Program-made: the position numbers and the translations under genes
Assembly (NCBI GenBank): GCA_963796685.1
Contig: CAWCMR010000025.1
Location: forward strand, 384,001 to 448,000
Direction of reading: 5' to 3'
DNA length: 64,000 nt
DNA from: an uncultured delta proteobacterium
GTDB taxonomy: Bacteria; Myxococcota_A; Polyangia; Fen-1088
Shown: piece after piece, positions 18,284 to 60,834 of the stretch
Numbering within the stretch: the stretch's first letter is position 1
How the letters are laid out: each line of letters starts with the position of its first letter
The notes under the pieces: generated by a model
The model's input: the letters and a program-made list of their open reading frames with translations, nothing else
The model's database searches: none
What the model was told of the DNA's origin: nothing

Positions 18284-18341
18284 GCCCCTTCTATCGGCAC
18301 AACCTTTGCCGATCTGGAGGAGGCGAGCCGCCCGGCTCGCT

Positions 18342-32899: not shown

Positions 32900-33125
32900 T
32901 GCAAAGCAGTATCCGTCGAGTCCTGGCGGGCTCAAACACCTTTGGGGAGCCGGCTGTCCGACCCATACCAGGGCTGACACTGAGCGCCCATGTCACGCGC
33001 CAGCCTGGAGCGCAGAATGCCGGCGATCTTGCATGATTTGGCCACGAGTTCTGGCAGCGGCGAGGCCCTTCACGGATCCATCGAGCGACTTGTAGCGACC
33101 AGCCAACCCCTACTCCCTTCACTTC

Positions 33126-33141
33126 TGGCCTGCCGTTTGCT
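33126..33141 (+). promoter_or_regulatory. Candidate sigma-54 promoter for the AI-2E gene
   Basis: TGGCCT-GCCGT-TTGCT (GG-N10-GC). Confidence 0.5.
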
Positions 33142-33158
33142 GTTGCTATGCCAAGCAC

Positions 33159-34397
33159 ATGAGTCGCAGCTCGACGCAGGATAGCAGCCCCGACCGGCAC
33201 GAGAATCCGGCAGAACAGCCTGCTCCATCGGCCTCGGTGGCCAGAGACTCGCCAACCAAGGTCTCCCTGGCAGGCGCGGAGTTTCGCCGCGCCCGAGACA
33301 CTTTCAAGACTGCCGCGGTAGCGGCAGGCGCCATCCTGGCCGTTGCCCTCGGTGTCTGGATCCTGGCGACAGCGCGCTTCGCCGTTGCGTTGACGGTCCT
33401 GTCGTTTCTCGTAGCCGTCGCCATGGATCGAGGCGTAAAGGTCTTCGAGCATCGGGGACTTCCGCGCCGCGTGGCCATTGCATTGGTCGTCTTGGCCATT
33501 CTTGGTGTGCTGACCGCACTGGCATTGCTTATTGTCCCAACGGCTGCCGAACAAGCAACCAACCTGATCAAATCGACTCCTCAGCTCATTGCCGAAGTGC
33601 GCCACTCGCGAGCCGTGGCCGTGCTCGATCGCGTCTTCCACATCAGGTCGGAGCTCGACAATCCGACGCGAAAGCTCGCCCACCTCGCAGAGAGTGAGCT
33701 CACACCCTTGTTGTCCCTGGTGGGCGGCGTGCTCACAGCCATCTCCGGGACCGTCGTCATCATCTTTCTTGCCATCTTCATGCTGGTCTTCGGCGGCCCG
33801 CTCATCGACCGCATGGTCGCAGAGGCCAGGCTCGAACGCCAGCCAACGTACAGACACGTGATTCAGAAGGTTCATCACGCGATAGGCGGTTATGTCACCG
33901 GGTTGATCGTGATTTGTTCGGTCAATGCGACGCTGACGACCATCTTTCTTGCCATCGACGACATACCGTTCTTTCTACCGCTCGGCCTGTTGAGCGGCCT
34001 GTCGAGCCTGGTCCCGTATGCGGGCCCGTTCATCGCGGGCGTCACCATCTCGGCCATTGCACTTGGCGCAGGCGGCATAGGTCATGGCATTGCTGCGGTG
34101 GCCTACTTCGTCGCATACGGGCAGCTCGAGGGAAATGTCTTGGCCCCCCTGATTTTCCGACGCACGGTGAATACCAACCCCCTCCTGGTAACCCTCTCCA
34201 TTCTGTTTTTCGCCCAAGTCGCGGGCATCCTCGGAGCAGTTGCTGCCGTCCCTCTGCTGGCTATCCTTCAGATCGTCATAGGCGAAATCTTGCGCCTCCG
34301 CCGCGCAGGATGGATGGAGCAACGAGCCTCCTCCGGGGCAAGTCGCGGAAAGGAAGAGGAACGTTACGGTGCTGACCCGGAAGCTTCGAGACGGTAA
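33159..34397 (+). CDS. AI-2E family transporter
   Basis: Multiple TM helices; IGGYVTG, VPYAGP, QLEGNVLAP, GILGAVAAVP. Confidence 0.92.
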   Translation: MSRSSTQDSSPDRHENPAEQPAPSASVARDSPTKVSLAGAEFRRARDTFKTAAVAAGAILAVALGVWILATARFAVALTVLSFLVAVAMDRGVKVFEHRGLPRRVAIALVVLAILGVLTALALLIVPTAAEQATNLIKSTPQLIAEVRHSRAVAVLDRVFHIRSELDNPTRKLAHLAESELTPLLSLVGGVLTAISGTVVIIFLAIFMLVFGGPLIDRMVAEARLERQPTYRHVIQKVHHAIGGYVTGLIVICSVNATLTTIFLAIDDIPFFLPLGLLSGLSSLVPYAGPFIAGVTISAIALGAGGIGHGIAAVAYFVAYGQLEGNVLAPLIFRRTVNTNPLLVTLSILFFAQVAGILGAVAAVPLLAILQIVIGEILRLRRAGWMEQRASSGASRGKEEERYGADPEASRR

Positions 34398-34471
34398 CGC
34401 TCGCGCGGTCGGCTGGTGCGGATAACTGAAGATGTGTCCAGAAATCGGCGATCAGGGCTCGCGTCCCACGA

Positions 34472-34487
34472 TGGCACGCCTCTTGAT
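34472..34487 (+). promoter_or_regulatory. Candidate sigma-54 promoter for glgX (GA instead of GC at -12)
   Basis: TGGCACG-CCTC-TTGAT. Confidence 0.4.
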
Positions 34488-34592
34488 GTGCTGAATTCCC
34501 TCACCGGGGTTGCAACGCGCAAGCCCTGTGAGGCGCCGAGCTATGCGTGCTCGGCCTTTGACCGCCCACCCAGCACCGGAGGATCGTAGCCC

Positions 34593-36815
34593 ATGCCCAA
34601 ACCAGCCCGCATCGACCCCGGACCCGATCCTAGATTTGCCGTTTTGCCCGGCACCCCCTTCCCACTCGGCGCAACGGTGGTGGAAGGAGGCACCAACTTC
34701 GCACTGTTTTCCGAGCACGCGCAGCACGTCTACGTCTGCCTCTTCGAGGAAGGTGCTCCCGGCAAGGAAGTCGGTCGCTACGAGCTGCGCGAAAGGACCG
34801 CCCATGTCTTCCACGGCATGCTTCCCGAGATCGGCGTCGGGGCACTTTATGGATTCAGGGTCGAAGGGCCCTTTGCCCCTTCCAAAGGACACCGCTTCAA
34901 CGTCAACAAGCTTCTTATCGACCCCTATGCGCGCGCCCTCCACGGCGACCTCGATTTCAAGGGCCCCATTTACGGCTATCCCCAGGGTGCAAAGGAAGGC
35001 GACCTCGGCTTCTCAAACGAGGACGACGCTTGGGCGAAGCCCAAGTCGGTGGTTCTGAGCGACGCTTTCGATTGGGGCGACGACCGAAGACCACGGGTTC
35101 CCTGGAACGATACCGTCATCTACGAGGCGCACGTACGAGGTTTGACCATGCGCCACCCGGACGTGCCCGAAGGCCTGCGCGGCACGTACGAGGCGGTCAC
35201 TCATCCCGCCATCATCTGGCATCTCAAGCAACTCGGAGTCACTGCCATCGAGCTTCTGCCCGTGCACGCCAAGCTGGTGGACGGATACCTCGTCGAGCGC
35301 GGCCTCACCAATTACTGGGGCTACAGCACCATGGGCTATTTCGCTCCCGAGCAGAAGTACGCTCGGGCCACAACCGTCCCGGGATCACAGGTCGCGGAAT
35401 TCAAGACCATGGTCAAGAACCTGCATGCGGCAGGCATCGAGGTAATTCTGGATGTCGTCTACAACCACACCGGGGAGGGCAACCAAGGCGGTCCGACCCT
35501 GTCTTTCCGCGGAATCGACAACTTGCTCTTCTACCATCACAGTCCCAAAGACGCGCGCTTCAACATGGATTTCACCGGGTGCGGTAACAGCCTGAACCTG
35601 GGCGCCCTCTATGTCATGAAGACCGTGCTCGACAGCCTCCGTTATTGGGCCGACGTCATGCATGTCGATGGGTTTCGGTTCGACGAGGCGACGACCCTTG
35701 GTCGCATGTGGCCCACCTTCGCCTTCGACCGCAACGCGGCCTTCTTTCAAGCCGTGCACCAAGACCCGATCCTTTCCCAGCTGAAGTTGATCGCGGAGCC
35801 CTGGGACACCGGCGAGGGAGGCCAGCAGCTGGGCCACTTCCCCGTCCTGTGGTCGGAATGGAACGTCTCCTATCGCGACACCGTCCGCTCCTTCTGGAAG
35901 GGCGATGAGAACCAGGCCAGCTCCCTCGGCCATCGCATGACCGGCTCAGCCGACATCTTCTTGCCCGGAGGCCGTCGGCCGCATGCCAGCATCAATTTCG
36001 TCACCAGCCACGACGGCTTTACGCTGCATGACCTCGTGACCTACGAGAAGAAACACAATGAGGCCAACAAGGAGGACAATCACGATGGGCTGGATGACAA
36101 CCGTGCGTGGAATCACGGCACCGAGGGAGAAACCGAGGACCAAGGCATCAACGTGCTCCGCGACCGCACCAAGCGCAACATCCTGACCACGCTCTTCATC
36201 TCCCGCGGCGTTCCCATGCTGACGGCAGGCGATGAGATGGGACGCACCCAAGAAGGCAACAACAACGCCTATTGCCAAGACAACGCAATCTCATGGGTGG
36301 ACTGGAGCTTGGACGAACGACGGCAGGCGCTTCTGGATTTCGTGAAACGGCTGTCGCGATTGCGTCACGGCGAGGGAGTGCTCCGTGAAGACTACTTCTT
36401 TCGCGGCGACCGCATCTGGGACTCTCCCCTAAAGGACCTTGCGTTCTTTCGTCCCGACGGAACCGAGACGACTCCCGACGATTGGAAGGCGCACCACGTT
36501 CGCTCCTTCGCTTGCCTCCTCGGGGGAGAAACCCTAGTGGTACCCGACAAGGCCGGACGCCGTCCCCTCGGCAACACCTTGCTGATGCTGCTCAACGCCC
36601 ACCACGAAGCTGTCGACTTCACGCTCCCGGGCTTGATCCGGGGACTCGGATGGGAGGTCGTTGTGGACACGTCACGTGGCACGCCTTCCGGCTCATCCAG
36701 ACTGGTAAACGAAGCCAAGGTCCACGTCCCCGAGCGCTCGATGATGGTCTTGCGCCAAACGCCCTCGCAACCTGGCACCCGTGACGTTCCCGAAGCCCCC
36801 AGCAAAACCTACTGA
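34593..36815 (+). CDS. glgX: Glycogen debranching enzyme (GH13)
   Basis: PLGAT, GTNFALFS, LIDPYA, NYWGY, DVVYNHT, DGFRFD, IAEPWD, HDGFTL, GNNNAYCQDN. Confidence 0.96.
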   Translation: MPKPARIDPGPDPRFAVLPGTPFPLGATVVEGGTNFALFSEHAQHVYVCLFEEGAPGKEVGRYELRERTAHVFHGMLPEIGVGALYGFRVEGPFAPSKGHRFNVNKLLIDPYARALHGDLDFKGPIYGYPQGAKEGDLGFSNEDDAWAKPKSVVLSDAFDWGDDRRPRVPWNDTVIYEAHVRGLTMRHPDVPEGLRGTYEAVTHPAIIWHLKQLGVTAIELLPVHAKLVDGYLVERGLTNYWGYSTMGYFAPEQKYARATTVPGSQVAEFKTMVKNLHAAGIEVILDVVYNHTGEGNQGGPTLSFRGIDNLLFYHHSPKDARFNMDFTGCGNSLNLGALYVMKTVLDSLRYWADVMHVDGFRFDEATTLGRMWPTFAFDRNAAFFQAVHQDPILSQLKLIAEPWDTGEGGQQLGHFPVLWSEWNVSYRDTVRSFWKGDENQASSLGHRMTGSADIFLPGGRRPHASINFVTSHDGFTLHDLVTYEKKHNEANKEDNHDGLDDNRAWNHGTEGETEDQGINVLRDRTKRNILTTLFISRGVPMLTAGDEMGRTQEGNNNAYCQDNAISWVDWSLDERRQALLDFVKRLSRLRHGEGVLREDYFFRGDRIWDSPLKDLAFFRPDGTETTPDDWKAHHVRSFACLLGGETLVVPDKAGRRPLGNTLLMLLNAHHEAVDFTLPGLIRGLGWEVVVDTSRGTPSGSSRLVNEAKVHVPERSMMVLRQTPSQPGTRDVPEAPSKTY

Positions 36816-36961
36816 ATGAGCTTTCGTCCACCGATGAGACGCACGAGCACGACCACAATGGCAAGAACCAGTAGAATGTGAATATACCCGCCCATGGTGT
36901 AAGAGCTTATGAGGCCGAGTAGCCACAGGACCACCAGCACGATTGAAATAGTCCAAAGCAT
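36809..36961 (-). CDS. lmo0937-family small membrane protein
   Basis: MLWTI..VLVVLWLLG...GGYIHILLVLAIVV; SD upstream. Confidence 0.9.
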   Translation of the reverse strand: MLWTISIVLVVLWLLGLISSYTMGGYIHILLVLAIVVVLVRLIGGRKLIQ

Positions 36962-37028
36962 GAGTATTGCCTTTCCTTGGAGAATGTCTTTCGCCAAACG
37001 TCGCGGTTCGGTTCCTGATCAAGGAGCA

Positions 37029-37044
37029 TGCCAAGCAAATGCCA
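37029..37044 (-). promoter_or_regulatory. Candidate sigma-54 promoter for the lmo0937-family gene
   Basis: Minus strand TGGCAT-TTGCT-TGGCA (GG-N10-GC). Confidence 0.55.
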
Positions 37045-37109
37045 AACCACTCGGTCACGACATTTCACGAGTGACGCTTCGCCGAACATCCTGCCGACGT
37101 CGGCACTCG

Positions 37110-37155
37110 GTCACGCCTATGTAACCCATCTGCCTTCTTGTCACGTACGCGTAAC
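37110..37155. promoter_or_regulatory. Two tandem GTCAC-N6-GTAAC dyads 30 bp apart (candidate activator binding sites)
   Basis: GTCACgcctatGTAAC at 37110-37125 and GTCACgtacgcGTAAC at 37140-37155. Confidence 0.6.
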
Positions 37156-37272
37156 TCCATCAAGCGAGTTGTTCACTTCCCAATTGAACCCTCTTCGTTC
37201 TCTGCTAGATGCTGTCATCACACGCAACTGGCTGGCGAATAAAGTAACCTCTTGCTCAGGTCTTGTGCCCAA

Positions 37273-38691
<1,419 letters not shown>

Positions 38692-38701
38692 CGTGGCGTC
38701 T

Positions 38702-39268
38702 TCAACCGGGAAACTCCTTCAAGTCATTTGCACCGTCGCTGATGACCATCTCTGCTTCGGCTCGCGCCGGATTCTCGACGTGGGTGTCGGAACCATCAGT
38801 CGCGACATCTGAAACCGGCGTGACGCCGCCACGAGACGTCGCATCCCCTGTTCGCCATGCGAGAATGTCTCGAATCGCCTCCAGCGTACACGCCTCTGGC
38901 GCACGGAGCAGAATGTCGTTCAGCCCGATGATGCCCTCGAGACGCTCGTCATCGCCAAGGACCAATAGCTGGGCGACGCCTTCCCTGCTCATGATCTCGA
39001 CAGCACGTTGCACTGGGCAGTCGGGCGGAACGAATTCACCCGGGCTCGACATGATGTCATCCACCCTCGTCAAGTCGGCAACACGTCCCTTGGCGACCAC
39101 CCGCATGACGAGATCCCTGACAGTGACAACTCCCAGCACATGAGCGTCCGGGCCGCAAATCGGCAGCAGGTCCACGCGATGCATGGCCATCAGCCTGGCA
39201 GCCTGACTCACAGAGCACGCGTCAGGAATCCATTGCACCTCTTTCCTCATGATGTCTCTACAAAACAT
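38702..39268 (-). CDS. CBS-domain protein
   Basis: CRDIM, AARLM, GVVTVRD, VDDIMS, GIIGLND. Confidence 0.9.
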   Translation of the reverse strand: MFCRDIMRKEVQWIPDACSVSQAARLMAMHRVDLLPICGPDAHVLGVVTVRDLVMRVVAKGRVADLTRVDDIMSSPGEFVPPDCPVQRAVEIMSREGVAQLLVLGDDERLEGIIGLNDILLRAPEACTLEAIRDILAWRTGDATSRGGVTPVSDVATDGSDTHVENPARAEAEMVISDGANDLKEFPG

Positions 39269-39305
39269 GGTTCAACTCCTTCCCTCTTCTTCAAAAAGAG
39301 ATTCA

Positions 39306-39321
39306 GGCAAGAAGTGTTCCG
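39306..39321 (-). promoter_or_regulatory. Weak candidate sigma-54 promoter for the CBS gene
   Basis: Minus strand CGGAAC-ACTTC-TTGCC. Confidence 0.4.
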
Positions 39322-39364
39322 TTCGACACCACGTAACTCTGTGCAATAGCGATCACTGCGCTAT

Positions 39365-39380
39365 TGGCCCAAAACATGCA
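39365..39380 (+). promoter_or_regulatory. Candidate sigma-54 promoter for the general-stress membrane protein
   Basis: TGGCCC-AAAAC-ATGCA (GG-N10-GC). Confidence 0.5.
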
Positions 39381-39418
39381 TTGGATTGTGTGTATGTTGC
39401 ACGTGAACGCAGGGCAAA

Positions 39419-39955
39419 ATGTCAGGTAGAACGTCAGTATTCGGAATTCTGACGACACTTCCCCAGCTGAAAGAGGTCGTCGCCAACTTGAGATCTGCCG
39501 GCTTCCGGTACGACGACATTTCGGTGCTCTTCGCGGACAGGAGCGGCTCCAGAAATCTGTCGTTGGAAAAGCACACCAAAGCACCCGAGGGTGCAGCCGC
39601 GGGGGCGGGCACCGGCGCTGTCCTTGGTGGAGCCTTGGGATGGCTGGTCGGCATCGGGGCGCTCGCTATACCGGGGCTCGGGCCCTTCATCGCCGCAGGC
39701 CCGATCATGGCCGCGCTGGCAGGAGCCGGGGCAGGTGGCGCGTTCCTGGGATTGACGGGTGCCATGGTGGGGCTGGGCATTCCGGAGTTCGAGGCCAAGC
39801 GCTACGAGGGCATGGTGACGAGTGGTGGAATACTCATCTCCGTACATGCGGACGGCTCCGAATGGGCGCAGCGCGCGGAAGCAATTCTCTCGCGTGGCAA
39901 CGCTACAAGTGTGTCACGCGCAAACGAGGCACCTGGCGAGATGATAGGGGCCTGA
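39419..39955 (+). CDS. General stress protein (17M/DUF3341-like) with a glycine-zipper membrane hairpin
   Basis: GF..DDISVL, TKAPEGA, IPGLGPFIAAGP, GIPEFEAKRYE. Confidence 0.85.
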   Translation: MSGRTSVFGILTTLPQLKEVVANLRSAGFRYDDISVLFADRSGSRNLSLEKHTKAPEGAAAGAGTGAVLGGALGWLVGIGALAIPGLGPFIAAGPIMAALAGAGAGGAFLGLTGAMVGLGIPEFEAKRYEGMVTSGGILISVHADGSEWAQRAEAILSRGNATSVSRANEAPGEMIGA

Positions 39956-39975
39956 TGATTTTGCCGGCTGTCTGC

Positions 39976-41443
39976 TCATTGCCCGAGCGGCCCCGTCTTC
40001 GACTGGCGCGGGGCACGGATACCGAAGGTTCGGCGCAAGACCAATAGTGCGGCATTGTATCCGCACATTCCGTGGACGCCCCCTCCAGGTGGGGTCGAGC
40101 CTCGAGCACAGGTAGATCCCTGGCGTTGGTGTCGCATAGGGAGACCAGCGCAGGGTCGGTCGCATGAGCATTTGACCGATATCGTTGGCTCCCCCTGTGA
40201 TGTCTCCTCCCTCGTAGTTCTGGTTGTAGAGGCTGAGCTCTGCGGCTGTCATGGTGTGACGTGCCAGAATGCAGTCGCGAAAGCCCGGCGCGAATCGTTC
40301 GACTTGTCGTTCTACGGCCAAGGTCATATTCTTCGTCGATCCGTTGGGGACGTGACAATAGGCCCAGCCCGTGTGCTTCCCTGCCGGTGCTCGACTCGGG
40401 TCGAAGAGGCTCTGCTGCGCGACCAAAACATAGGGACGCTCCGGGTGATAGCCTTCGCCAACTTCTCGTTCGGACTGGGCAATCTCTTCCAGGGTACCAC
40501 CCAGGTGCACGGTCCCCGCATGACCACATTCCTTGCTCCTCCACGGAATCGGACCGGCAAGCGCCCAGTCCAGCTTGAACGCGCCAGGGGCCGGGCGAAA
40601 CCGTTCGATGCGCTCCACGTACCTCTTGCGAAGTCGATCTCGACAAATGCGCGCCATCACCCTCGGGCTGGTATCGAATAGCACCGCCCGGGCTTCGGGA
40701 AGCTCGCGCCAATCACGGACCAAGCGGTCGGTTTCGATGATCCCGCCAAGCTCTTTCAGATGGTTCGCGAGCGCAAGAGCGATCGCTCGGGAACCGCCCT
40801 TGACACAGGGCCATCCCTTCACGTGCGCGGCCAAGAGCAGGGTCATTCCGATGGCCGAGCTGGCCGGCGCATCGAGAGGCAGAAACGCATGGGCGGCGCA
40901 ACCTGCCAGCAGTGCACGCGCGAGGGCTGTCGCGAAGGTACCACGAGCGAGGCGCTCGGCGGACTTGAAGGCTGTCCAGCCAAAGCGAGCCACCAGGAAA
41001 GGATGACGAGGCCATCGCAACGGTTTGAGCAATTCTGCAAACAGAAGAGGTGCCTGTGCAAGAAAGGGCTCGACCAGCTTCCGGTACGATTCGGCATCGT
41101 CCTCCAGTCCGTGGGCGGTCTCTTCGACGGAGCGCTTCAGCAGTGCCACGCGACCGTCGTCGAGCGGGTGCGCGAGAGCAACGGGAGGCTCGACCCACGT
41201 GACTTCACGAGTCTCCAGTGCCATGCGCTGAAACGCGGGCGATAGTGCCCCCATGGGGTGAATCGCCGAACAGACATCGTGCGTGAACCCTGGCAGGGTC
41301 AATGCAGCGCTGCGTGTGCCACCTCCGATTTCGCCGCGGGCTTCGAGGACGAGGACCGAAAGCCCCTGCTCGGCGAGCGTCACGGCCGCCGAAAGACCAT
41401 TCGGCCCTGAACCGACGATGATAGCGTCGTAACGTTCCGGCAT
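39976..41443 (-). CDS. Phytoene dehydrogenase-related NAD(P)/FAD oxidoreductase; frameshift near 40100
   Basis: [25 protein letters not shown]. Removing one base restores [13 protein letters not shown] and a stop at 39976. Confidence 0.9.
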
Positions 41444-41476
41444 CCATGAAGTCTATAGCGCTTCGGACCGCCGCGC

Positions 41477-44021
41477 TCACGCCAGCTTGCGCGCACTCTC
41501 GGGGCTAATCGCGCTCATCAAGGCAGACATCTCGACGGGCTTCACCAGGTGCGCGTCGAAGCCCACGGCTCGACTCTGCATAGAATCTCCCTCGCGGCCG
41601 TAGCCGGTCAGCGCGACGAGGCGCGGAGGCGAGCTCGACGGTCGGGCACGCACCCTTCGCGCGAGCTCGAAGCCATCCATCTCGGGCAGCCCGAGATCGA
41701 GGATGGCCACCTCGGCGGGGAAGACCTCGAGCCTGTCCAAGGCCGAGGGCCCGTCATCCGCCACCGCCACCTCATGCCCCAAGTCACGCAGGAGATCCGC
41801 CAACATTTCCCTGGCGTCTTCGTTGTCGTCCACGACGAGGATACGCTTTCCTTCCAGCGACACGAGGGGCGGTGTCTCGGCGTTCGGCACCTTCAAATCG
41901 ACCGAAACAAGGGCGGGGATGCGCACCACGAATTCGCTGCCGCGCCCGGGGCCCTCGCTCGTGGCAGCGACCGTTCCACCGTGCAGAGTGACGAAGCTCT
42001 TCACGAGCGCCAGGCCGAGACCAAGCCCGCCCTCGGAACGGGCAACCGTGCGCATCCCTTGTACGAAGGGCTCGAACACATGGGGAAGAAGGCTGGCTCC
42101 GATGCCTTCGCCATCATCGCGAACGCGGATAACCACCTGGCCATCTTCGAGCGCGGCGCCGAGCCACACGTGCCCGCGCGGCGGCGTGTACTTCGCCGCA
42201 TTGGTCAAGAGGTTGGCCACGACCTGGGCCAGGCGCAAGGGATCGGCGTACATCCACATTCCCGACCTGGGGGTCGACACGGCCAGGTGCTGCTCCCGCT
42301 GTTCAATGAGCGGACTGGCAATTTCGACGGCCTTGGAGAGAACGTCTTGCACTTCGACGTTGACGCGCTCGAGCGACAGAAGTCCTCGGGCCACGCGAGA
42401 CACATCCAGCAAGTCGTCGACCAACCTGCCCAGGTGCACGACCTGGCGCTCGATGACCTCCCGTTCGCGCATGGAGCGTTCGTCGCCGCGTAGTTTCAGG
42501 AGCTGGACAGCCGTGCTGATGGGCGCCAACGGGTTTCGCAGCTCGTGCCCGAGCATGGCCAGAAATTCGTCCTTGGACCGGTTGGCGGATTCCGCGCTGG
42601 CTCGCGCCGCGCGCTCCCCCTCGAAGAGCCTTGCCCTTTCGAAAGCCTGCGAACAGAGGTCGCTGACCGTTCGCAGGATTGACCGGTCGCCATCGGCAAA
42701 CTCACGTGGACTATCGAAACTCAGCGCAAGTGCGCCAACCAACGTGCCGTACGCCACGAGCGGCAAGGCCACGAAGGCTTCGAAGTTGCCGGCGCTTATG
42801 GCGTTGCGAAGCGCTGGGTACAGCTTCCGACAACTTTCGCAGGCTGTCGTAGAAAGCCGCCGTTCGTTCCCGTGCGGCGTCTGTGATCGGCGTGTGCACG
42901 GCGAGAGGAATCGACGTGTAGTTCACGGTCGCAGCCTCCGGGAGGCCACGCTCGCCGAACAGCTCGAGGTCTTTCCCGTCGGAGCCGAGCAGGTAGACGG
43001 CGCATGCTGAAGCACCCAGGGCGGTGACGCACTCATCGAGGACGACCTTCGATACATCCTCGGGTGTGACGGCTTCCGAGAGCGCCGCGGTCAACCGTTG
43101 CAAGCGCCGAAGCTTCTCTTCGCTCGCGCGCAACCGATGTTCGGCCGCTTGGGCCGCCTCGCGCTTTGCACGCTCGACGATGAGCCGGTACTCGACTTCC
43201 TCGGCGTGTCGGCGTTCGGTCAGGTCGCGCGTAATCTTGGCGAACCCGTAAACTTCACCATCTGCATTGCGAAGGACCGTAAGCGAGCCCTGGGCCCAGA
43301 AGCGTGACCCGTCCTTGCGCACCCGCCAGCCCATCACCGCGCGGGTCCCTTCCTTCAGAGCATCGCCAATCAATTGCGCGGGGACGCCAGCAAGGCGGTC
43401 TTCCGACGTAAAGAAGATCTCATAGGGCTGCCCCTGGATCTCCGCCGTCGGCCAACCCGTGATGCGCTCAGCACCCGCGTTCCAGCTGGACACGCGACCG
43501 CCAGCATCGAGCATGAAGATGGCACAATCCCGGACGCCATTGACGAAGAGCTGAAAGCGCTCCTCGCTGAGCCGCAACGCATCTAACATTCTGACGAGCT
43601 CGCCTCGGTCGCGCACGGTCGTGACGAAGATGGGCGTGCTCTCCCGGCAGGCCGCCCCAAAGCACCACTCGATGTCGCGCTCGCCGCCATCGCACATGAG
43701 GCCGGGAAGCTCGACTTGCATGAGGTCGGACGTTGCCGCAATCGGCGGTGCATCCGGCTGCCTCAGCCGCTCGGGAATCAGCATGTCCGTCGAGCGGCCC
43801 GCGAGAGCACCCGGCTCATAACCGAAGATGCTCTCGGCTGGCCTGTTTGCATGAAGAATGCACCGGAATGCATCGAAGGCGATCAGCGCCTCGGAAGCCA
43901 CCCCGAGAATTTCCGCCAGTTGAGCGGGGCGAGCCTCGACTTCAGCCAGTATCTTTCGAAGTGTCTGCTTTATCCCGCGTAGCGCGCCTCGTCCAGGTGG
44001 ACTCTGGGCTTCTTCCTTCAC
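41477..44021 (-). CDS. PAS-PAS-GAF hybrid histidine kinase with a receiver domain; frameshift near 42842
   Basis: SWNAGAE...RKDGSRFW, GAF domain, LGHELRNPL, NLLTNAAKY, GLGLGL, ILVVDDN, LDLGLP. Confidence 0.92.
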
Positions 44022-44118
44022 GACTGCCTCACATCGGTTTTGTTCTGATGCACCTGTCCTTCTTGTGGTTTCGCGTCTCGGTCAATGTGCAGTGTATTCA
44101 GCATGGCCTGGGACCCAG

Positions 44119-44134
44119 GTTACCGTCTCGTGAC
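44119..44134. promoter_or_regulatory. Third copy of the dyad, GTTAC-N6-GTGAC, upstream of the hybrid kinase
   Basis: GTTACcgtctcGTGAC is the reverse complement of the GTCAC-N6-GTAAC pattern. Confidence 0.5.
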
Positions 44135-44181
44135 TGTAAGGGAATGGATGCTACGGGGGCGGAACCGAGCTGGAGCAGTCG

Positions 44182-44784
44182 CTACTCTGCCGCTCTGCTC
44201 CGCGAGCTGGCGGAAGCGGTCTTCAGCTCATCGTTGATGTGGTGCACACCCTTGGTCGTGCGAGCGACCTGCAGTGCCTTCAGGTGCACCGTCTCGGAGG
44301 AGACCGTGCCTGTCAACTTCACCTCTCCCTTTCCATCCGTTTCCACGTGGATGGCGCTGTCCTTGAACTCGCTTCCCGTCGTGTACTGCTCCTTCAGCTT
44401 CGCCGTTATCCACGTGTTCGACACATCCTCTCCGACGGAAGCAACCTCCGAATGGATCTTCGCCTCGGCGCCTCGCGCCTTTGCCTTGCTGCTGTCTGGG
44501 GCCTGTTTTTGGGCCAGCGCGCTGTCGACTGCGATCCTGTTGTCGACCCTCGTGGCGCCCCCCGCCTTGGCCAAGCTTTCTGCTTCATCCCGGTCTGCCG
44601 CAGAGGGCACCTTCCCACTCAGGACGACTACCCGTTCGTATCGCACCTTTACGTCGCGTAGGTCCGTGTGTCCCTTGAGCTTGGCTTCGATGCGAGTTGC
44701 TTCCGAGCTTTGGCCCGCGAACGTGGGCGTCCCAAAACCAAAGACAATACCCAGGGAAACCAGTATTTCCATTAAACGCATCAC
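44182..44784 (-). CDS. Dual BON-domain (OsmY-like) exported protein
   Basis: Signal peptide, VVLSGKV, NTWITAKLK, IHVET..GEVKLTGTV, KGV; SD ggagg. Confidence 0.9.
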   Translation of the reverse strand: MMRLMEILVSLGIVFGFGTPTFAGQSSEATRIEAKLKGHTDLRDVKVRYERVVVLSGKVPSAADRDEAESLAKAGGATRVDNRIAVDSALAQKQAPDSSKAKARGAEAKIHSEVASVGEDVSNTWITAKLKEQYTTGSEFKDSAIHVETDGKGEVKLTGTVSSETVHLKALQVARTTKGVHHINDELKTASASSRSRAAE

Positions 44785-44837
44785 AGTACACCTCCAATAG
44801 TCGATGCAGCTTCAAGGAGCCGCTAGCCATCTGTACA

Positions 44838-44895
44838 TCCAAATAGCGTGCCAGCCATGGTCACCATCGCCCGATTGTGTGGCATGACGATTGCT
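44838..44895. promoter_or_regulatory. Back-to-back candidate sigma-54 promoters
   Basis: Plus strand TGGCATG-ACGA-TTGCT at 44880-44895 (near-consensus); minus strand TGGCACG-CTAT-TTGGA at 44853-44838 (imperfect -12). Confidence 0.65.
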
Positions 44896-44925
44896 CACCT
44901 ATGGAATTGTCGAAAGGAGATGCTC

Positions 44926-45285: not shown

Positions 45286-45320
45286 GCGCGAGCTTGACAC
45301 AAGGGTGCAGAAGCGGCAGC

Positions 45321-48195: not shown

Positions 48196-49717
48196 GTGCG
48201 GTGTCCGCCGTTAAGCAAAGCGCTCCTTGGGAAGCGATACCTGGCGGCTGTCGTGGCCGCCTTGCTCGTATGGAGCCCTGTAGACGTCGCCTCCTCGGCG
48301 GTCCCGGCGCCGGCGCCGTATCGGGCCTCGCCCGAGGAACAGCAATTCCTCGAAACCCTGCAGCACGACACCTTCCGCTTCTTCTGGGAGACGACCCCGG
48401 CGAAAAGCGGTCTTACCCTCGACCGCTTTCCGGCCAACGACCTTGCCAGCGTCGCCGGCGTCGGCTTTGCGCTTACGTCCTATGTCGTTGGCGTGGGCAG
48501 GGGGTGGATCACGCGCGACCAGGCAGCCGAGCGGACCTTGACCACCTTGCGCTTTCTGTGGCGCGCACCGCAAGGGCCCGAGCGAGCCGGCGTGGCCGGA
48601 TACCGAGGCTTCTTCTATCACTTCCTCGATATCCACACGGGCTACCGCGCGCCCGGGGCGGAGCTCTCCACCATGGACACGGCGTTGCTCATGGCCGGGG
48701 TTCTTTCCTCGGCCACGTTCTTCGACGGGAGCGACGCCACCGAACGAAGCATTCGTCAGCCTGGGCCGGCAACTGTACGGGCGGGTGGATTGGACGTGGG
48801 CGTATTCTCGGCGGCATCCCCCGCTGTTGAGCATGGGGTGGACGCCCGAGGATGGGTTCATCGCTGCCGATTGGCAGGGGTACAACGAGGCGATGATCCT
48901 ATACGTGCTCGCGCTGGGCTCCGACACCCACCCCATCAAGGCGCAGGCGTGGAAGGCATGGACGTCCACCTACCGCTGGGAGGGAGGCGACGGTTTTCCA
49001 CGCGTGGCGTTCGACCCGCTGTTCGGCCATCAGTACTCGCACGTGTGGATCGACTTTCGCGGCATCCAAGATGCGTACATGCGGTCAAAGGGCATCGACT
49101 ATTTCATCAATTCGACCCGTGCAACCTACGCCAATCGGGCCTACTGCGTGGCGAACCCGGCGAAGTGGGTCGGCTACGACGCTCAAGTGTGGGGCCTGAG
49201 CGCCTCGGACGGACCGCTCAGGATCGGCGGCGAAAGCGCCGCGACGGACGACCGCTTTCATGCTTACTGGGCGCGCGGCGCAGGACCCGACCGTAGGGAC
49301 GACGGCACCATCGCCGTGACGGCAGCCGGCGGATCGGTTCCGTTTGCGCCCGAGCTGACCATCCCGACGTTACGCTATTTCCGCGCGCACTTCGGCAAAC
49401 AGCTCTATGGCAAGTACGGATTCAAGGACGCTTTCAATCTGTCCTTCCCGAATTCGGGGTCGCACGAGCCGGGTTGGTTTGCCGATCAGTATGTTGCCAT
49501 CGACCAAGGGCCGATTCTGCTGATGATTGAAAATTTCCGCACCGAGCGGGTGTGGACGCTGATGAAGAGCAACCCGTACATCCGCAAGGGTCTGCTGAGG
49601 GCCGGCTTTTCCGGCGGTTGGTTGGACGGCAAGCCCGTGACCTCCTCTGCGACCGAGGTCGCGGCATCTGCGCCAGCGGCAACGCCCCCTTGCCGAACAG
49701 CCCCGGACGGGGGCTAG
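48196..49717 (+). CDS. GH144-like endo-beta-1,2-glucanase (DUF2329 family); frameshift near 48760
   Basis: FRFFWE, RGFFYHF, ELSTMDT, GYNEA, LFGHQYSH, YGFKDAFN, IDQGP...ENFR. Confidence 0.88.
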
Positions 49718-49722
49718 CCCGC

Positions 49723-53705: not shown

Positions 53706-53706
53706 T

Positions 53707-55086
53707 ATGCGGACACAACGCGACTCGATGGGCGAGATGGCGGTTCCGGACGATGCGCTCTACGGCGCCTCCACCCAGCGGGCGGTGCTCAACTTTCCCA
53801 TCAGCGGGCACACCATGCCCGACGCCTTCATCCGGGCGCTGGCCCTGATCAAGCTGGCGTGCGCCCGCGCCCACGAAGATCTGGGCAGATTGTCCGGCGA
53901 AAAATCGCAAGCCATCCAAAGGGCCGCCATGGAGATCGTGGCCGGCGGACTGGCTTCCCAGTTTCCCGTCGACGTCTTTCAAACCGGCTCGGGCACCTCG
54001 ACCAACACCAACATGAACGAGGTCATCGCCAATCGCGCCAGCCGACAGGCGGGCCGGCCGCTCGGATCGAATCTCCCGGTGCACCCCAACGACGACGTCA
54101 ACCTGGGCCAATCCTCGAACGACGTCATTCCCAGCGCGCTGCATGTGAGCGTCGCGGTCGCCCTGCACGGCAAGCTGCGCCCTGCCCTGGCCTTGCTGCA
54201 ACAGGAGCTGGAGGCGAAGGCGCGGCAACTGCAGCCGGTGGTCAAGATCGGCCGCACCCACTTGATGGACGCGACGCCGCTGACCCTCGGGCAAGAATTC
54301 TCGGGCTATGCCATGCAGGCTCAAAAGGCCGTTGAGCGCACCGACCGCGCCATTGCTTGCCTGTACGAGCTCGCCATCGGCGGCACCGCGGTCGGCACCG
54401 GGCTGCACGCCCATCCCGAGCTTGCCGCGCGCGTGTGTGGGATTCTCGCCGCCCATACCGGCCTGCCCTTCGTGGAGGCGCGCAACCACTTCGAGGCACA
54501 AGGCGGACGCGACGATGCGGTCGAAGTGGCCGGTCTGCTGACTGCCATGGCGGCCAGCCTGACCAAGATCGCGAACGACCTGCGGCTGTTATCATCGGGG
54601 CCGCGTTGCGGGCTGGGCGAGATCAATTTGCCCTCGCTGCAGCCGGGCAGCTCGATCATGCCGGGCAAGATCAATCCGGTGATGAGCGAGATGCTGGTAC
54701 AGGTCTGCGCCTATGCCCAGGGCCTGGCCCACACCGTTGTCCTGTGCGGCCGTGACGGCCACCTCGAGCTCAACGTGACCCTTCCGCTCATTGCGTTCTC
54801 GCTGCACGAGGCTATCACGTGCCTCGCCCAGGGCGTGCTCAGCTTCGCCGGGTCCTGCGTGCGCGGCATCGAGCCCAACGCCGAACGCTGCCGCGAGCTG
54901 GTCCAGCGTTCCTTGATGCTGGTGACCGCGCTGACCCCGCACCTGGGTTACGACCGGGCCGCGGAGGTTGCCAAGCAAGCCCTTGCCAGTGGCCGCACCC
55001 TGCGCGAGGTCGTGCTGGAACGCGGCCTGCTCGACGAAGCCACGCTCGACCGCGCGCTCGACCCGATGGGCATGACGGGTGCGTAG
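53707..55086 (+). CDS. fumC: Class II fumarate hydratase
   Basis: RDSMGE, FQTGSGTSTN, HPNDDVN, GRTHLMDA, GSSIMPGKINP. Confidence 0.93.
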   Translation: MRTQRDSMGEMAVPDDALYGASTQRAVLNFPISGHTMPDAFIRALALIKLACARAHEDLGRLSGEKSQAIQRAAMEIVAGGLASQFPVDVFQTGSGTSTNTNMNEVIANRASRQAGRPLGSNLPVHPNDDVNLGQSSNDVIPSALHVSVAVALHGKLRPALALLQQELEAKARQLQPVVKIGRTHLMDATPLTLGQEFSGYAMQAQKAVERTDRAIACLYELAIGGTAVGTGLHAHPELAARVCGILAAHTGLPFVEARNHFEAQGGRDDAVEVAGLLTAMAASLTKIANDLRLLSSGPRCGLGEINLPSLQPGSSIMPGKINPVMSEMLVQVCAYAQGLAHTVVLCGRDGHLELNVTLPLIAFSLHEAITCLAQGVLSFAGSCVRGIEPNAERCRELVQRSLMLVTALTPHLGYDRAAEVAKQALASGRTLREVVLERGLLDEATLDRALDPMGMTGA

Positions 55087-55124
55087 ATCCGAAGTTCCTC
55101 TAGGCTCCGTTCCCTATTGGCGCG

Positions 55125-56900: not shown

Positions 56901-57012
56901 TGGTGATTCTCCTGTGCCACGGGCCAAATGCTCAGCTGAGCAGTGTCGCGGACAGGCCAAATCCATCTAGACCCTCAGGACGGTGACGACAGCCCGCCCG
57001 GAGCGCGGCCAT

Positions 57013-58494
57013 TCACCCGGTGGATGGCCTGGCGCCAAGGCTCTCCCGGCCCGCGTTGGGAAACGGAGACGAGCCCAGCTCGGCGCGCAGCTTGGGCAGG
57101 CACTGCGGATGATGGCGCTGGAGGTAGGCGATGAGCTTCTCGCGGATGTTGCAGCGCAAGTCCCACGACTTGGACGAGTCCGCGGAGGTGGCCAACACGC
57201 GGATTTGCATGGTGCGTTCGGAGGCCTCGGTCACCTGCAGATTCCAGAAGCGTTTGTCCCACAGCGGATCGTTCTCGACGATCTCCTGCAAGGCCGCGCG
57301 AACCTGGCCAAGCGGCACGCTGTAGTCGACCCACACGAAGACCGAACCGAGCAGCTCGGCGGAGACGCGCGTCCAGTTCTGGAACGGCTTCTCGATGAAG
57401 TGGCTCAAGGGCACCACCAACCGCCGGTCGTCCCAGATGTGCACCACCACGTAGGTCAAGGTGATCTCCTCGATACGCCCCCACTCGCCCTCGACGATGA
57501 CCACGTCGTCCAAACGGATGGGCTGGGTCATCGCGAGCTGGAATCCGGCGAAAAGGTTGGCGATGGTCTTCTGGGCGGCGAACCCGAAGATGATGCCGAC
57601 CACGCCCGCAGACGCCAGGATGCTCGTGCCGAAGCGCTGCACCTCCTTGAACAACATCAGCACCGAGGCCAGGGTGAAGAGCGTGATGGCGAAGTAGAGC
57701 GTCTTGCTGATGACGTGAACCTGGGTATAGGCCTTGCGCGCGCGGAGATTGTCCGCGGCCTTGATATCGTACTCGACCAGAACCGCCTTTTCGCCGAGGC
57801 TCACCATCTGCGACAGGATCAACGCCACCGCCACGATGAGCAGGATGCTGGTTCCCTTGCCGAGAACGTCCGCATACCGATCGGGCAGGTCGAGCAGGGG
57901 CAGGGCCAAGATAACGCCGAGCACGGGCACGACGATGCGCAAGCTCTTGCCCACCAGAGGGGCCAAGAGATTGTCCAGCCTGCTGGAGGTCTTCGCCGAC
58001 CACGTCTCGAGCCAGGCTTCGAGCACGTGCGTGAAGCGGAAGAAGAGCCAAAGCAGGACTCCGAAGACCGCAATGTCGAGGCATTTGTCGAGCACCCCGA
58101 TGACGAATCGCCAGTCTTCTCCCTGCCCTATTCGCAACAGAATCGGTGTTGCGGCCAAGTAGAGGCCATAGACCCAAACCATGAGGTGCACGGGTTTGCT
58201 CACGATGCGGCGGGTGTCGTGGCGCAGTGGTTGGCCTGCTGATGGTCCGGCCGAGGCGTCGGTGTGTCGCCACAACAGGGCGACCAGCAGCGCGTTCAGC
58301 AGCAAGGTCAGGACGAGGAAGAAACCCACCACGCCGAGGTCTCCCCAGGTCACAGAACCGAAGGCCGGGGCGCGCAGAGCGGGCCCACCGATGCGTTCCA
58401 ACCACCCGTGCAGCAGGTGGGAAATCGCCGTGGCAAAGGTTCCTACATAGGCACTTCCCTTCAAGTCGTGGTTCATCGAGATGGCATGTACCAC
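57013..58494 (-). CDS. MscS family mechanosensitive channel (start uncertain)
   Basis: TM helices, GFAAQKTIAN, QPIRLDD, GRIEEI, FQNWTR. Confidence 0.92.
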   Translation of the reverse strand: MVHAISMNHDLKGSAYVGTFATAISHLLHGWLERIGGPALRAPAFGSVTWGDLGVVGFFLVLTLLLNALLVALLWRHTDASAGPSAGQPLRHDTRRIVSKPVHLMVWVYGLYLAATPILLRIGQGEDWRFVIGVLDKCLDIAVFGVLLWLFFRFTHVLEAWLETWSAKTSSRLDNLLAPLVGKSLRIVVPVLGVILALPLLDLPDRYADVLGKGTSILLIVAVALILSQMVSLGEKAVLVEYDIKAADNLRARKAYTQVHVISKTLYFAITLFTLASVLMLFKEVQRFGTSILASAGVVGIIFGFAAQKTIANLFAGFQLAMTQPIRLDDVVIVEGEWGRIEEITLTYVVVHIWDDRRLVVPLSHFIEKPFQNWTRVSAELLGSVFVWVDYSVPLGQVRAALQEIVENDPLWDKRFWNLQVTEASERTMQIRVLATSADSSKSWDLRCNIREKLIAYLQRHHPQCLPKLRAELGSSPFPNAGRESLGARPSTG

Positions 58495-58665
58495 GCACTG
58501 GATTTTTCAAGAGCAAAGCTGCCCGTGCCATGCCGGCTACGGCGGAGGCCGTTGTGACTCGTCGGCGCGGGCCCTCACTGTACACTTGCGCGCGCCCCCC
58601 CTGTTGCGTCAGCCTTGTCGCGGGGAGGACCTATGCGGTCAATGTCCCCTCCCCTCACTGACCCC

Positions 58666-59520
58666 ATGTCTACGCTCGATCGGCTGAACGCACTCGTCCA
58701 CCAACCCTTGGTTCATCTCGCCGGGGGACCGATCACATTGCTCTCCCTGCTCGCCGCGCTGCTCATCGTGGCGGTGTCGTACTTCCTGGCCGGCATCGCC
58801 AGCCGGGCCGTAAGCCGTCTGCTCGCCCGGCGCGAGGTCGCGCATGGGGCGCGCTTTGCGCTGACCAAGATCACGCGCTACCTCGTGGTCCTGGTGGGAG
58901 TCGTGGTCGCCGCCATGTCACTGGGGATCCGCCTTGACGCGGTCCTCGCGGCCTCGACGGTGGTGCTGGTGGGCATCGGATTCGGCTTGCAGAACATCGC
59001 CCAGAACTTCGTCTCGGGACTGATCCTACTGATTGAACGACCGGTCGCGCGCGGGGACTTCGTCCAGATCGGAGCGGTCTGTGGCTCGGTCAGCGACATC
59101 GGCATGCGTGCAACGCGGGTCGTGACCCGCGACGAAGTCACCATCATCGTGCCCAACAGCGAGCTCGTCACCGCGCAAGTGATCAACCATTCCGTGCCCA
59201 CGACGAATCTTCGCATCAGCGTGCAGGTCGGCGTGGCCTACGGGACGGACACCGGTCGCACCCGGGACGTCCTGCTTCAGGTTGCGGCGGCCGAGCCCGA
59301 GCTGCTCCGGGAGCCTCCTCCCGAAGTGCGCTTCGACAATTTCGCCGACTCGAGCCTGAGCTTCTCGCTACTGGTGTGGATTACCAATCCCCGCGAGGAC
59401 CTGCGCGTCGCCTCGCGCCTCCGCTTCGCGATCGATGCGGCCTTCCGCAGCGCCGGCATTCAAATCCCTTTCCCGCAACGCGACGTCCACGTCAAATCGC
59501 TCGCCCCTCCTGGCCCTTAG
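58666..59520 (+). CDS. MscS family mechanosensitive channel
   Basis: GFGLQNI..NFVSG, ERP..GD, IIVPNS, VGVAYG, IPFPQRDVH. Confidence 0.93.
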   Translation: MSTLDRLNALVHQPLVHLAGGPITLLSLLAALLIVAVSYFLAGIASRAVSRLLARREVAHGARFALTKITRYLVVLVGVVVAAMSLGIRLDAVLAASTVVLVGIGFGLQNIAQNFVSGLILLIERPVARGDFVQIGAVCGSVSDIGMRATRVVTRDEVTIIVPNSELVTAQVINHSVPTTNLRISVQVGVAYGTDTGRTRDVLLQVAAAEPELLREPPPEVRFDNFADSSLSFSLLVWITNPREDLRVASRLRFAIDAAFRSAGIQIPFPQRDVHVKSLAPPGP

Positions 59521-59563
59521 CGACACGCGCCCCCCACCTCTCCGAGTGGACGTGGGAAGGCTT

Positions 59564-59579
59564 TGGCAACATCTTTGCT
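59564..59579 (+). promoter_or_regulatory. Candidate sigma-54 promoter for the YtxH-like gene
   Basis: TGGCAA-CATCT-TTGCT. Confidence 0.6.
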
Positions 59580-59604
59580 GGCGCCAATCGCAAAGGAGAC
59601 AATC

Positions 59605-59875
59605 ATGAAGATCAATGACCTCAAAGACCTCGACAAGAACGACATCCTGAAGATTCTGGGCGTCGATACAGGCATTGCGACCACTGGTGTGCTGTGGACA
59701 GTTGGGTTGATTGCCATCAGCGCGATCGCCGGCGCAACAGACTGTTCTGTTGTTGGCACCCAACACCAGAAGCGAGCTGAGAGAGAAGATCGGACGTCGG
59801 TCCAGAGAAACCGCGGACAACATTCTCACGACTGCACGGGCCAAGGTGAACGAAGTCCAGTCGGAGATAGGATAG
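59605..59875 (+). CDS. YtxH-like general stress protein; frameshift near 59740
   Basis: SD aaggag; after removing one base reads AIAGA..VLLLAP.T.SELREKI...EIG-stop. Confidence 0.7.
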
Positions 59876-59945
59876 TACATTGCCACGCAAGCCAGAGGCA
59901 TTCGCCCGCATCGCGCGGGCGTGCCTCTGGCTGCGTGTTCGCGGA

Positions 59946-60467
59946 CTAGCCGATGCTGCTCATCTCGCGCTCCTTCGTGCTCATGAATGGCTTCTCCAGC
60001 CGCTTGGCGCCGTCTTTACCGAGAACCTCTTGTGCCCGGGAGAAGAACTCGCCCTCTTCTTCTGACGCATGTCTCTTCACCAACTTCGTTAGGTGTTGAA
60101 CCTGTCGTTGCCAGTCGGGTGAATCGAAGCTCAGGGCGTCTATTTGGTTGATCGCTCTCTCCAACTCCTCGGCCTCCTCAGCGTGGAGGCGCACGATGTC
60201 CTCGGTTCTCGAATCCCCCCCAAGGGCAGGGTAGACTGTGGTCAGCTCCGCTCGTTCATGCGAGACGAGCTGCTTCTTGATTTCGGTCCAAAGGTCGCGG
60301 CGCTTCTCGGCATCCTCGGCTGCTGCTGCGCGCGACAAAAGCGTGCTTACCTCGTGGTGCTGTTCGGCGAGCGTCACGAAGACGCCGCTCAGACCTTTGG
60401 CCATTGCTTGAGCGGCGCCGGCCTTTCCAGCGCCTTTCGCTGCGATGTTCTTGATCGGATTGGGCAT
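59946..60467 (-). CDS. Hemerythrin/HHE cation-binding domain protein
   Basis: EQHHEV, SHERAE...VYPAL, RHASEEEGEFF; SD aaggag. Confidence 0.9.
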   Translation of the reverse strand: MPNPIKNIAAKGAGKAGAAQAMAKGLSGVFVTLAEQHHEVSTLLSRAAAAEDAEKRRDLWTEIKKQLVSHERAELTTVYPALGGDSRTEDIVRLHAEEAEELERAINQIDALSFDSPDWQRQVQHLTKLVKRHASEEEGEFFSRAQEVLGKDGAKRLEKPFMSTKEREMSSIG

Positions 60468-60508
60468 GGCTGTTCTCCTTTTCTGCAAATCGCTCCCATT
60501 TGAGAGGC

Positions 60509-60524
60509 TGCAAGCCCGGTGCCA
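60509..60524 (-). promoter_or_regulatory. Consensus sigma-54 promoter for the hemerythrin gene
   Basis: Minus strand TGGCAC-CGGGC-TTGCA, an exact TGGCAC-N5-TTGCW match. Confidence 0.75.
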
Positions 60525-60834
60525 GAACAGCCGTCCTTGGTGGACACGTCGAGGCCTTCGGCCGACCTGGCCGCCCACGAGCTTACGGGGGAGAGTCGGG
60601 GCGAGCTTTTTCGACAGCAGCGTTGGACTTTGCGCGGGTCACCCAGAGTGGACGGCCTGGCACGTGGCTGTTCCTGATCGGAAACGACAAACACCGGTCG
60701 TGGTGGTCGGCGCGTCGGCGCGCAACTTTCCTGGACCGATTCGTACGAGCGCATCGTCGGGCCCCCTCCTCCCCTCGGACCGCTCCGTTTTCGGGAGATC
60801 TCTGGTGTGGACGCGAATTTTGCCCGGTGTTAGG

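Follow-up and report, generated by a model that had tools for sequence, protein, structure and literature searches.

The DNA analysed here, referred to as the window, comprises 64,000 nucleotides (nt) of contig CAWCMR010000025.1 (assembly GCA_963796685.1) of an uncultured delta proteobacterium and has a G+C content of about 64%. In a 28-kb stretch of it, small stress-type genes are probably preceded by functional sigma-54 promoters, five to seven in number, and an NtrC-type activator encoded among them likely serves at least some of these promoters. The gene map of the region between 33 and 61 kb, which is based on Pfam and NCBIfam scans, begins with the genes for an AI-2E (PerM-type) family transporter (33159-34397, + strand; PF01594, E 5e-46) and the glycogen debranching enzyme GlgX (34593-36815, +; TIGR02100, 929 bits, above cutoff). 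These are followed by a gene for a membrane peptide of 50 amino acids of the lmo0937/DUF5670 family (36809-36961, -; NF033488, E 3e-16, above the curated cutoff; PF18919, E 1.3e-14), the gene for the NtrC-class enhancer-binding protein (37252-38691, +), and genes for a CBS-pair protein (38702-39268, -) and a YflT-like ("17M") protein (39419-39955, +), whose match is weak and sub-threshold (24.2 bits against a cutoff of 26.2). Further downstream, the map shows genes for a flavin adenine dinucleotide (FAD) oxidoreductase (39914-41443, -), a hybrid histidine kinase with the domain order PAS-GAF-HisKA-HATPase-receiver (41477-44021, -), a protein with two BON domains (44182-44784, -; PF04972, E 7.6e-24, in two stretches), which resembles OsmY with a sub-threshold match, and an EER-repeat protein of 119 amino acids (44926-45285, +). 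A YtxH-like gene (59605-59875, +), which can be read only if a frameshift is bridged, and a gene for a hemerythrin HHE-domain protein (59946-60467, -; PF01814, E 6.6e-13) lie at the far end. The region also encodes glycoside hydrolases, an Omp85-like protein, fumarase C, an arabinofuranosidase and two MscS-family channels.

Most of these names had been proposed in a first-pass annotation of the same DNA, and the profile scans bear them out for AI-2E, GlgX, lmo0937/DUF5670, CBS, BON, hemerythrin and MscS, YflT and YtxH being recovered at sub-threshold level only. In a three-frame translation of the YtxH gene, the second-frame piece matches PF12732 (YtxH) partially and below threshold (E 3.4e-5), and the first piece matches no family; since the family is seen only in the second reading frame, the gene appears to be frameshifted near position 59725. 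The hemerythrin-like protein weakly resembles the PA2171 persister family, with a score below threshold. The EER-repeat protein belongs to no known family: it has no match in Pfam or NCBIfam, an Atlas search was also empty, and a single homologue was detectable among 401 candidates, which is 70% identical and carries a shorter and variable EER repeat.

The first-pass annotation had proposed that these genes form a sigma-54-driven general-stress regulon, based on nine GG-N10-GC motifs or variants thereof, in front of the AI-2E, glgX, lmo0937, YflT, CBS, BON, EER, YtxH and hemerythrin genes. All nine motifs lie where they had been reported and point in the reported direction. However, the bare GG-N10-GC motif is uninformative at a G+C content of about 64%: it matches 1288 times in the window, 54 times in promoter positions, and other gaps between the two dinucleotides give 1172 to 1437 and 52 to 78 matches, respectively. 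The canonical gap is not enriched, and the bare motif was dropped as a criterion. Sites were scored against the consensus TGGCACG-N4-TTGC(T/A), as quoted in PMC7910581, and a position was regarded as promoter-competent if the site was wholly intergenic, oriented towards the start of the next gene and at most 200 nt away from it, which applies to 7008 of 127,970 positions (5.5%).

The evidence for the sigma-54-type sites is positional, as they are found in promoter position more often than expected by chance. With at most one mismatch, five sites are present in the window compared to 0.99 expected, a number that none of 100 shuffles reached, and four of the five are promoter-competent against a background of 5.5% (binomial p 4e-5). 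With at most two mismatches, seven out of 16 sites are promoter-competent (binomial p 1e-5 against the same background). Control motifs with the wrong spacers N1, N2, N3, N5, N6, N7 and N8 gave 0/12, 1/11, 1/12, 2/10, 1/11, 1/14 and 1/19, respectively, which amounts to 7/89 for the pooled control spacers versus 7/16 for the canonical one (Fisher p 9e-4). These seven sites, upstream of the EER, hemerythrin, YtxH, AI-2E, lmo0937, glgX and BON genes, are thereby supported as a group, and several of the stress-type genes carry sigma-54-type -24/-12 elements as had been suggested; the sites claimed for YflT and CBS are at background level. All seven lie at or beyond position 33000, where 46.5% of the competent positions fall (p 0.005), and the first half of the window, the other 33 kb, contains no sigma-54-like site in promoter position. 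In a leave-one-out matrix, each of the seven sites ranks between 7 and 58 among 127,958 positions. Since their likeness is confined to the -24/-12 core and ends there, the sites do not represent copies of a repeat. At lower similarity the placement effect disappears: with exactly three mismatches, 10 of 100 sites with the canonical spacer are in promoter positions compared to 5 to 11 with control spacers, and with exactly four mismatches the numbers are 39 of 591 and 33 to 51. The core TGG-N8-TTGC occurs 27 times in the window against 9.2 expected; this excess was not counted as evidence because other gaps also reach up to 20 matches in an irregular manner. When intergenic DNA was searched de novo for spaced dyads, the sigma-54 motif did not emerge, and a 66-nt tandem repeat came out on top.

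The supported sites are located 17 to 105 nt upstream of a start codon, and four of the starts have a strong Shine-Dalgarno sequence. The sites of the EER, hemerythrin, YtxH, AI-2E and lmo0937 genes contain the TGG-N8-TTGC(T/A) core together with the GG/GC pair. The putative EER promoter TGGCATGACGATTGCT (44880-44895, +; promoter position) has one mismatch and a leave-one-out rank of 19, and is followed after 30 nt by an ATG codon (44926) preceded by the Shine-Dalgarno sequence AAAGGAG. The same Shine-Dalgarno sequence is found in front of the hemerythrin and YtxH genes. The hemerythrin site TGGCACCGGGCTTGCA (60509-60524, -; promoter position; rank 21), located 41 nt from the ATG (60467), had been described as an exact match to the consensus; in fact, it agrees in 11 of the 12 specified bases. 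The YtxH site TGGCAACATCTTTGCT (59564-59579, +) is in promoter position, has two mismatches and rank 18, and is separated from its ATG (59605) by 25 nt. Two mismatches are also present in the AI-2E site TGGCCTGCCGTTTGCT (33126-33141, +), which is in promoter position and has the best leave-one-out rank of the group (rank 7). Upstream of lmo0937, three overlapping registers, TGGTTTGGCATTTGCT, TGGCATTTGCTTGGCA and TGGCATGCTCCTTGAT, are found at 37018-37049 (-), the first of which ranks 56 in the leave-one-out test and the other two 33 and 10 with the seven-site matrix; any of the three may serve, and the sequence by itself favours none.

For glgX and BON, variants in the -12 element had been reported, and these were confirmed. 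The glgX site TGGCACGCCTCTTGAT (34472-34487, +) is in promoter position with one mismatch and rank 58, combines a perfect -24 element with GA instead of GC at -12, and lies 105 nt from the ATG. Similarly, the BON site TGGCACGCTATTTGGA (44838-44853, -; promoter position; one mismatch; rank 14) has a perfect -24 element and GG instead of GC at -12, and is located 53 nt from the start of the gene. It is arranged back-to-back with the EER promoter at a distance of 26 nt. Judged by their sequence, the glgX and BON sites are plausible but atypical sigma-54 sites.

Two of the claimed sites are not supported. The YflT site TGGCCCAAAACATGCA (39365-39380, +) contains the GG/GC pair, has three mismatches and ranks 140 with the seven-site matrix, and the CBS site CGGAACACTTCTTGCC (39306-39321, -), also with the GG/GC pair, has four mismatches and ranks 1327. 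Between these two divergent genes, a perfect inverted repeat with arms of 8 nt, CAATAGCG-N7-CGCTATTG, is located at 39344-39366, which overlaps the unsupported -24 element of YflT and is a candidate regulator-binding site. Neither of the two MscS genes has a sigma-54 site with the correct spacing. Upstream of the larger one, the perfect half-sites TGGCACG and TTGCT are present at 58512-58530 (-) with a spacer of 7 instead of 4 nt; two such pairs with an N7 spacer are found in the window, where 0.77 are expected. Sigma-54 should not use such a site, which could be a promoter that is dead or has degenerated, or a chance occurrence. The sole site with at most one mismatch outside the claimed region, CGGCACGGGGATTGCT at 6617-6632 (-), lies in a 650-nt stretch without a recognisable gene, and the open reading frames (ORFs) near it have no Pfam match.

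The activator gene is located among the seven candidate promoters, and this position is suggestive. Its product combines a receiver, a sigma-54 AAA+ domain and a Fis-type helix-turn-helix (HTH) domain (PF00158, E 3e-71; PF00072, E 9e-31; PF02954, E 1.4e-13) and is the only Sigma54_activat match in the window. The ERGAFTGA loop, the Walker A motif GESGTGKE and the Walker B motif LFLDEI are all intact, and the acceptor aspartate was placed by eye in DVVICDVRLP. The intergenic region that separates lmo0937 from the activator gene contains CGTGACCGAGTG in two identical copies, 56 nt apart within 37048-37115 (-), together with a 14-nt palindrome, TGCCGACGTCGGCA, at 37092-37105; both elements are candidate activator-binding sites. 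The hybrid kinase is the only kinase of its kind seen in the window and possesses a C-terminal receiver; Pfam scans of the window revealed no histidine phosphotransfer (Hpt) protein. Its gene is divided between two reading frames, both with Pfam matches, which share positions 42711-42772; the junction interrupts the GAF domain. The BON gene is co-directional with the kinase and FAD-oxidoreductase genes downstream of it, and the kinase, which may be co-transcribed with BON, is by its position a reasonable partner of the activator.

Several findings weigh against the reading that the sites are promoters served by this activator. The upstream regions of the candidate promoters share no 7- to 10-mer and no inverted dyad above random controls, and no exact copy of CGTGACCGAGTG is present elsewhere in the window or at the other promoters. 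Of the assignment to the resident activator made in the first-pass annotation, the complete gene among the sites therefore stands, while a common upstream motif linking the promoters to it is missing. Because no common upstream activator site was found, a single regulon and an input from the kinase are put forward here with reserve. Furthermore, the Pfam scans detected no rpoN gene in the window. A genome scan for relatives with the activator as query yielded 80 fetched loci, none of which is syntenic or carries the stress genes. One explanation for these findings would be that the sigma-54 promoters are real but belong to more than one regulon, depending on different enhancer-binding proteins encoded elsewhere, and that the resident activator controls at most lmo0937. 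This explanation is possible, though somewhat unlikely in our view; it would account for the missing common motif or dyad and for the 12-nt repeat CGTGACCGAGTG being found only beside lmo0937, and it agrees with the many activators with distinct sites carried by myxobacteria, such as Nla28 and NmpR, as described in PMC9765219, PMC7910581 and PMC11841059. However, the seven sites surround a single activator gene in a stretch of 28 kb, the other 33 kb contain none in promoter position, the target genes are alike in function, and a motif search on nine short sequences has little power.

Further points of this kind concern the sites themselves. The window-wide totals are at chance, with 116 sites observed versus 112.5 expected for at most three mismatches and 16 versus 12.5 for at most two; of the idea that the motif is more frequent than in background DNA, the enrichment at one mismatch or less and the promoter placement hold within the window, and the larger totals do not. 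The AI-2E site is only 17 nt away from the first ATG (33159), which leaves a predicted leader of about 7 nt without a Shine-Dalgarno sequence, so the true start may be located further downstream. At the glgX and BON sites, the near-invariant GC of the -12 element is missing. Several genes of the window are frameshifted, which makes the quality of the sequence uncertain. Finally, from 33 kb onwards the gene starts were set manually with the sites already known, and the placement test was therefore repeated without annotation, counting sites followed within 10 to 120 nt by a Shine-Dalgarno sequence, an ATG or GTG codon and an ORF of at least 45 codons. In this test, 4/16 sites with the canonical spacer are followed by such a start compared to 3/89 with wrong spacers and a background of 4.1% (binomial p 0.003, Fisher p 0.01), a weaker result than that of the annotated test.

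With these points in mind, it could be argued that the sites are chance matches in AT-richer intergenic DNA and that the genes use promoters of the sigma-70 family, for example, those of an extracytoplasmic function (ECF)-type sigma factor for general stress. The totals for two and three mismatches, which equal the shuffle expectation, the noise at YflT and CBS and the deviant -12 elements of glgX and BON fit this explanation, and an ECF sigma/FecR pair is indeed encoded at 25291-27428. We nevertheless consider it improbable, as wrong spacers of the same composition reach promoter position in only 7/89 cases compared to 7/16, and as five sites with at most one mismatch are found where 0.99 are expected. 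In addition, a sigma-70-like consensus was found neither in 33000-46000 nor in 57000-62500, and patterns resembling EcfG and SigB promoters occurred 0 and 0 times in promoter positions, although the latter test was crude. That the sigma-54 holoenzyme mainly occludes or tunes overlapping sigma-70 promoters without initiating transcription, as might be expected from the widespread, transcriptionally inactive sigma-54 binding that genome-scale mapping reportedly revealed in E. coli, is very improbable here, since the sites lie between genes, point in the correct direction and keep short, regular distances from Shine-Dalgarno sequences and start codons, and since no overlapping sigma-70-like consensus was found.

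If the sites are sigma-54 promoters with an activator nearby, as we consider probable, RNA polymerase-sigma-54 would rest on them as a closed complex, as in the standard sigma-54 mechanism, and would fire only upon ATP hydrolysis by an AAA+ enhancer-binding protein. The leading candidate for this role is the receiver-AAA+-HTH protein encoded at 37252-38691, which would become active once its receiver is phosphorylated. It would at least probably drive the divergent lmo0937 gene, upstream of which the two exact 12-nt repeats CGTGACCGAGTG are located, and the BON promoter may in addition drive the kinase and oxidoreductase genes downstream on the same strand. The motifs, their non-random placement, the intact motifs of the activator and the gene families are observations, from which we infer sigma-54 dependence, the pairing of activator and promoters, the input from the kinase and induction by stress or dormancy. 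It is tempting to go one step further and to speculate that in this uncultured lineage sigma-54, together with a single dedicated NtrC-type activator fed by the PAS-GAF hybrid kinase, plays the part that SigB, RpoS or EcfG have in other bacteria, as master switch of the general-stress or dormancy response; this is, however, doubtful. Such a regulon would comprise YtxH, lmo0937, BON/OsmY, hemerythrin, AI-2E and glycogen breakdown, and its genes would be held tightly off, since sigma-54 promoters are silent until an activator acts. Confirmation of the promoters would provide a regulatory handle on poorly understood small stress proteins (YtxH, lmo0937/DUF5670, BON, hemerythrin-like and the orphan EER-repeat protein) in an uncultured soil-type bacterium and another case in which a general-stress gene set has been recruited to a different sigma factor. 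The proposal is readily testable, as the promoters are short and intergenic, their start points are predicted, and removal of the receiver can render the activator constitutive.

YtxH and YflT are members of the SigB regulon and OsmY belongs to the RpoS regulon. The locus resembles the SigB, RpoS and EcfG regulons in its gene content, with lmo0937 and BON above cutoff and YtxH and YflT below threshold. Those regulons, however, are controlled by sigma-70-family factors that do not need an ATPase activator, whereas the promoter type found here is -24/-12. For lmo0937, lower levels in a Listeria sigB mutant are reported in PMC7690807.

The control of starvation, hypoxia, dormancy and envelope stress genes by sigma-54 and an activator is already established, and the mechanism proposed here is not new. 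The first-pass annotation had considered the architecture to be undescribed; this was too strong in view of the precedents Nla28 and NmpRSTU in Myxococcus xanthus and of predictions for Planctomycetia. NmpRSTU of M. xanthus is a phosphorelay including a hybrid kinase that acts on an NtrC-like regulator and sigma-54 (PMC11841059). Intergenic sigma-54 promoters of the NmpR regulon precede genes for a CBS protein beside the regulator, a universal stress protein, a hemerythrin and a cbb3 oxidase, and the authors liken the regulon to the mycobacterial hypoxia/dormancy regulon (PMC11841059). An NtrC-like regulator, sigma-54-type sites, a hybrid kinase, and CBS and hemerythrin genes are also found at the locus described here. 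However, Pfam scans of the window show no protoglobin kinase, cbb3 oxidase or hemN genes, the CBS gene lacks a supported site, and the putative targets are YtxH, lmo0937, BON, AI-2E and the EER protein. The 300 nt upstream of each candidate promoter contain no match to the NmpR site GCGCA-N5-TGCGC with one mismatch or fewer. With the binding consensus absent upstream of the sites and no protoglobin kinase seen in the window, the locus does not qualify as an NmpR-type system by these two tests.

Nla28 of M. xanthus, an enhancer-binding response regulator that activates many sigma-54 promoters upon starvation (PMC9765219, PMC7910581), resembles the present activator in that an enhancer-binding response regulator is combined with several sigma-54 promoters. 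However, the promoters targeted by Nla28 are mostly intragenic, whereas the sites described here are intergenic with short leaders. Furthermore, Nla28 recognises the half-site CT(C/G)CG(C/G)AG in an 8-bp tandem repeat, whereas only the two copies of CGTGACCGAGTG, which differ from it, are found here, at one promoter. A survey from 2025 (PMC12316311) predicts sigma-54 promoters before MscS, UspA-type and chaperone genes in Planctomycetia, so the wiring of sigma-54 to stress genes outside the Proteobacteria has already been predicted; at the present locus, by contrast, no site with the correct spacing precedes the MscS genes. Hemerythrin, YtxH, the BON domain, OsmY, COG4980 and COG2823 are absent from eight supplementary files of this survey, and hemerythrin also from its main text. 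Literature searches, whose coverage excluded subscription journals, gave no report of YtxH, lmo0937, BON and AI-2E as targets under sigma-54.

The best of the fetched loci stem from metagenome-assembled genomes of Myxococcota/Polyangia with a G+C content of 69-74%, and their activators are 50-61% identical to the one described here. The nearest named homologues of the activator are found in Polyangia/Myxococcales (68-72% identity), two Archangium loci reach 42%, and homologues with 82-84% identity exist among metagenome proteins. Among the genes of interest, the 80 loci contain only CBS-like matches (L053, L008 and L076) and a GlgX match (L008). In L008, whose activator is 50% identical, the weak sigma-54-like site TGGCCCGGGGCTTGAA is located at 11556-11571 between the activator and a downstream CBS-pair gene, and the GlgX homologue lies about 9 kb away. 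The site was too weak to be used as evidence of conservation; the layout of the genes hints at an old association of activator, CBS and GlgX. Fumarase C, encoded at 53728-55086, has its nearest named homologues in Verrucomicrobia/Opitutaceae (71-74%), in conflict with the affiliation of the activator; fumarases from the closest relatives reach 92-95%. The G+C content of the stress-gene stretch from 32 to 40 kb is 59-62%, compared to 64-70% in its flanks, and horizontal acquisition of the cluster is possible.

Genes split between frames are not restricted to YtxH (59700-59760) and the hybrid kinase (42711-42772), but were also observed for a glycoside hydrolase family 15 (GH15) glucodextranase (around 47590-47620), a DUF1552 protein (20904-21013) and possibly a PF10091 glycoamylase (48196-49717). 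The splits could be either assembly indel errors or real pseudogenes, and there are no obvious homopolymer runs at the junctions. An Rfam scan of the window gave no match to an RNA family. The first half of the window encodes FG-GAP repeat proteins at 3077-4888 and 7818-9464, upstream of a carbohydrate-degradation block (9959-16351) with three genes of the GH5 cellulase family and an alpha-galactosidase gene, and this block is followed at 16409-21569 by genes for a fusion protein of a Ser/Thr kinase and an HDOD domain and for a PSCyt/PSD protein with a DUF1552 partner. The stretch between 29.3 and 31.6 kb has a G+C content of about 70% and contains no ORF with a Pfam match. Within it, a 66-nt unit is repeated three times at 31257-31451 with 93% matches, and an unrecognised gene probably encodes it as a protein repeat of 22 residues.

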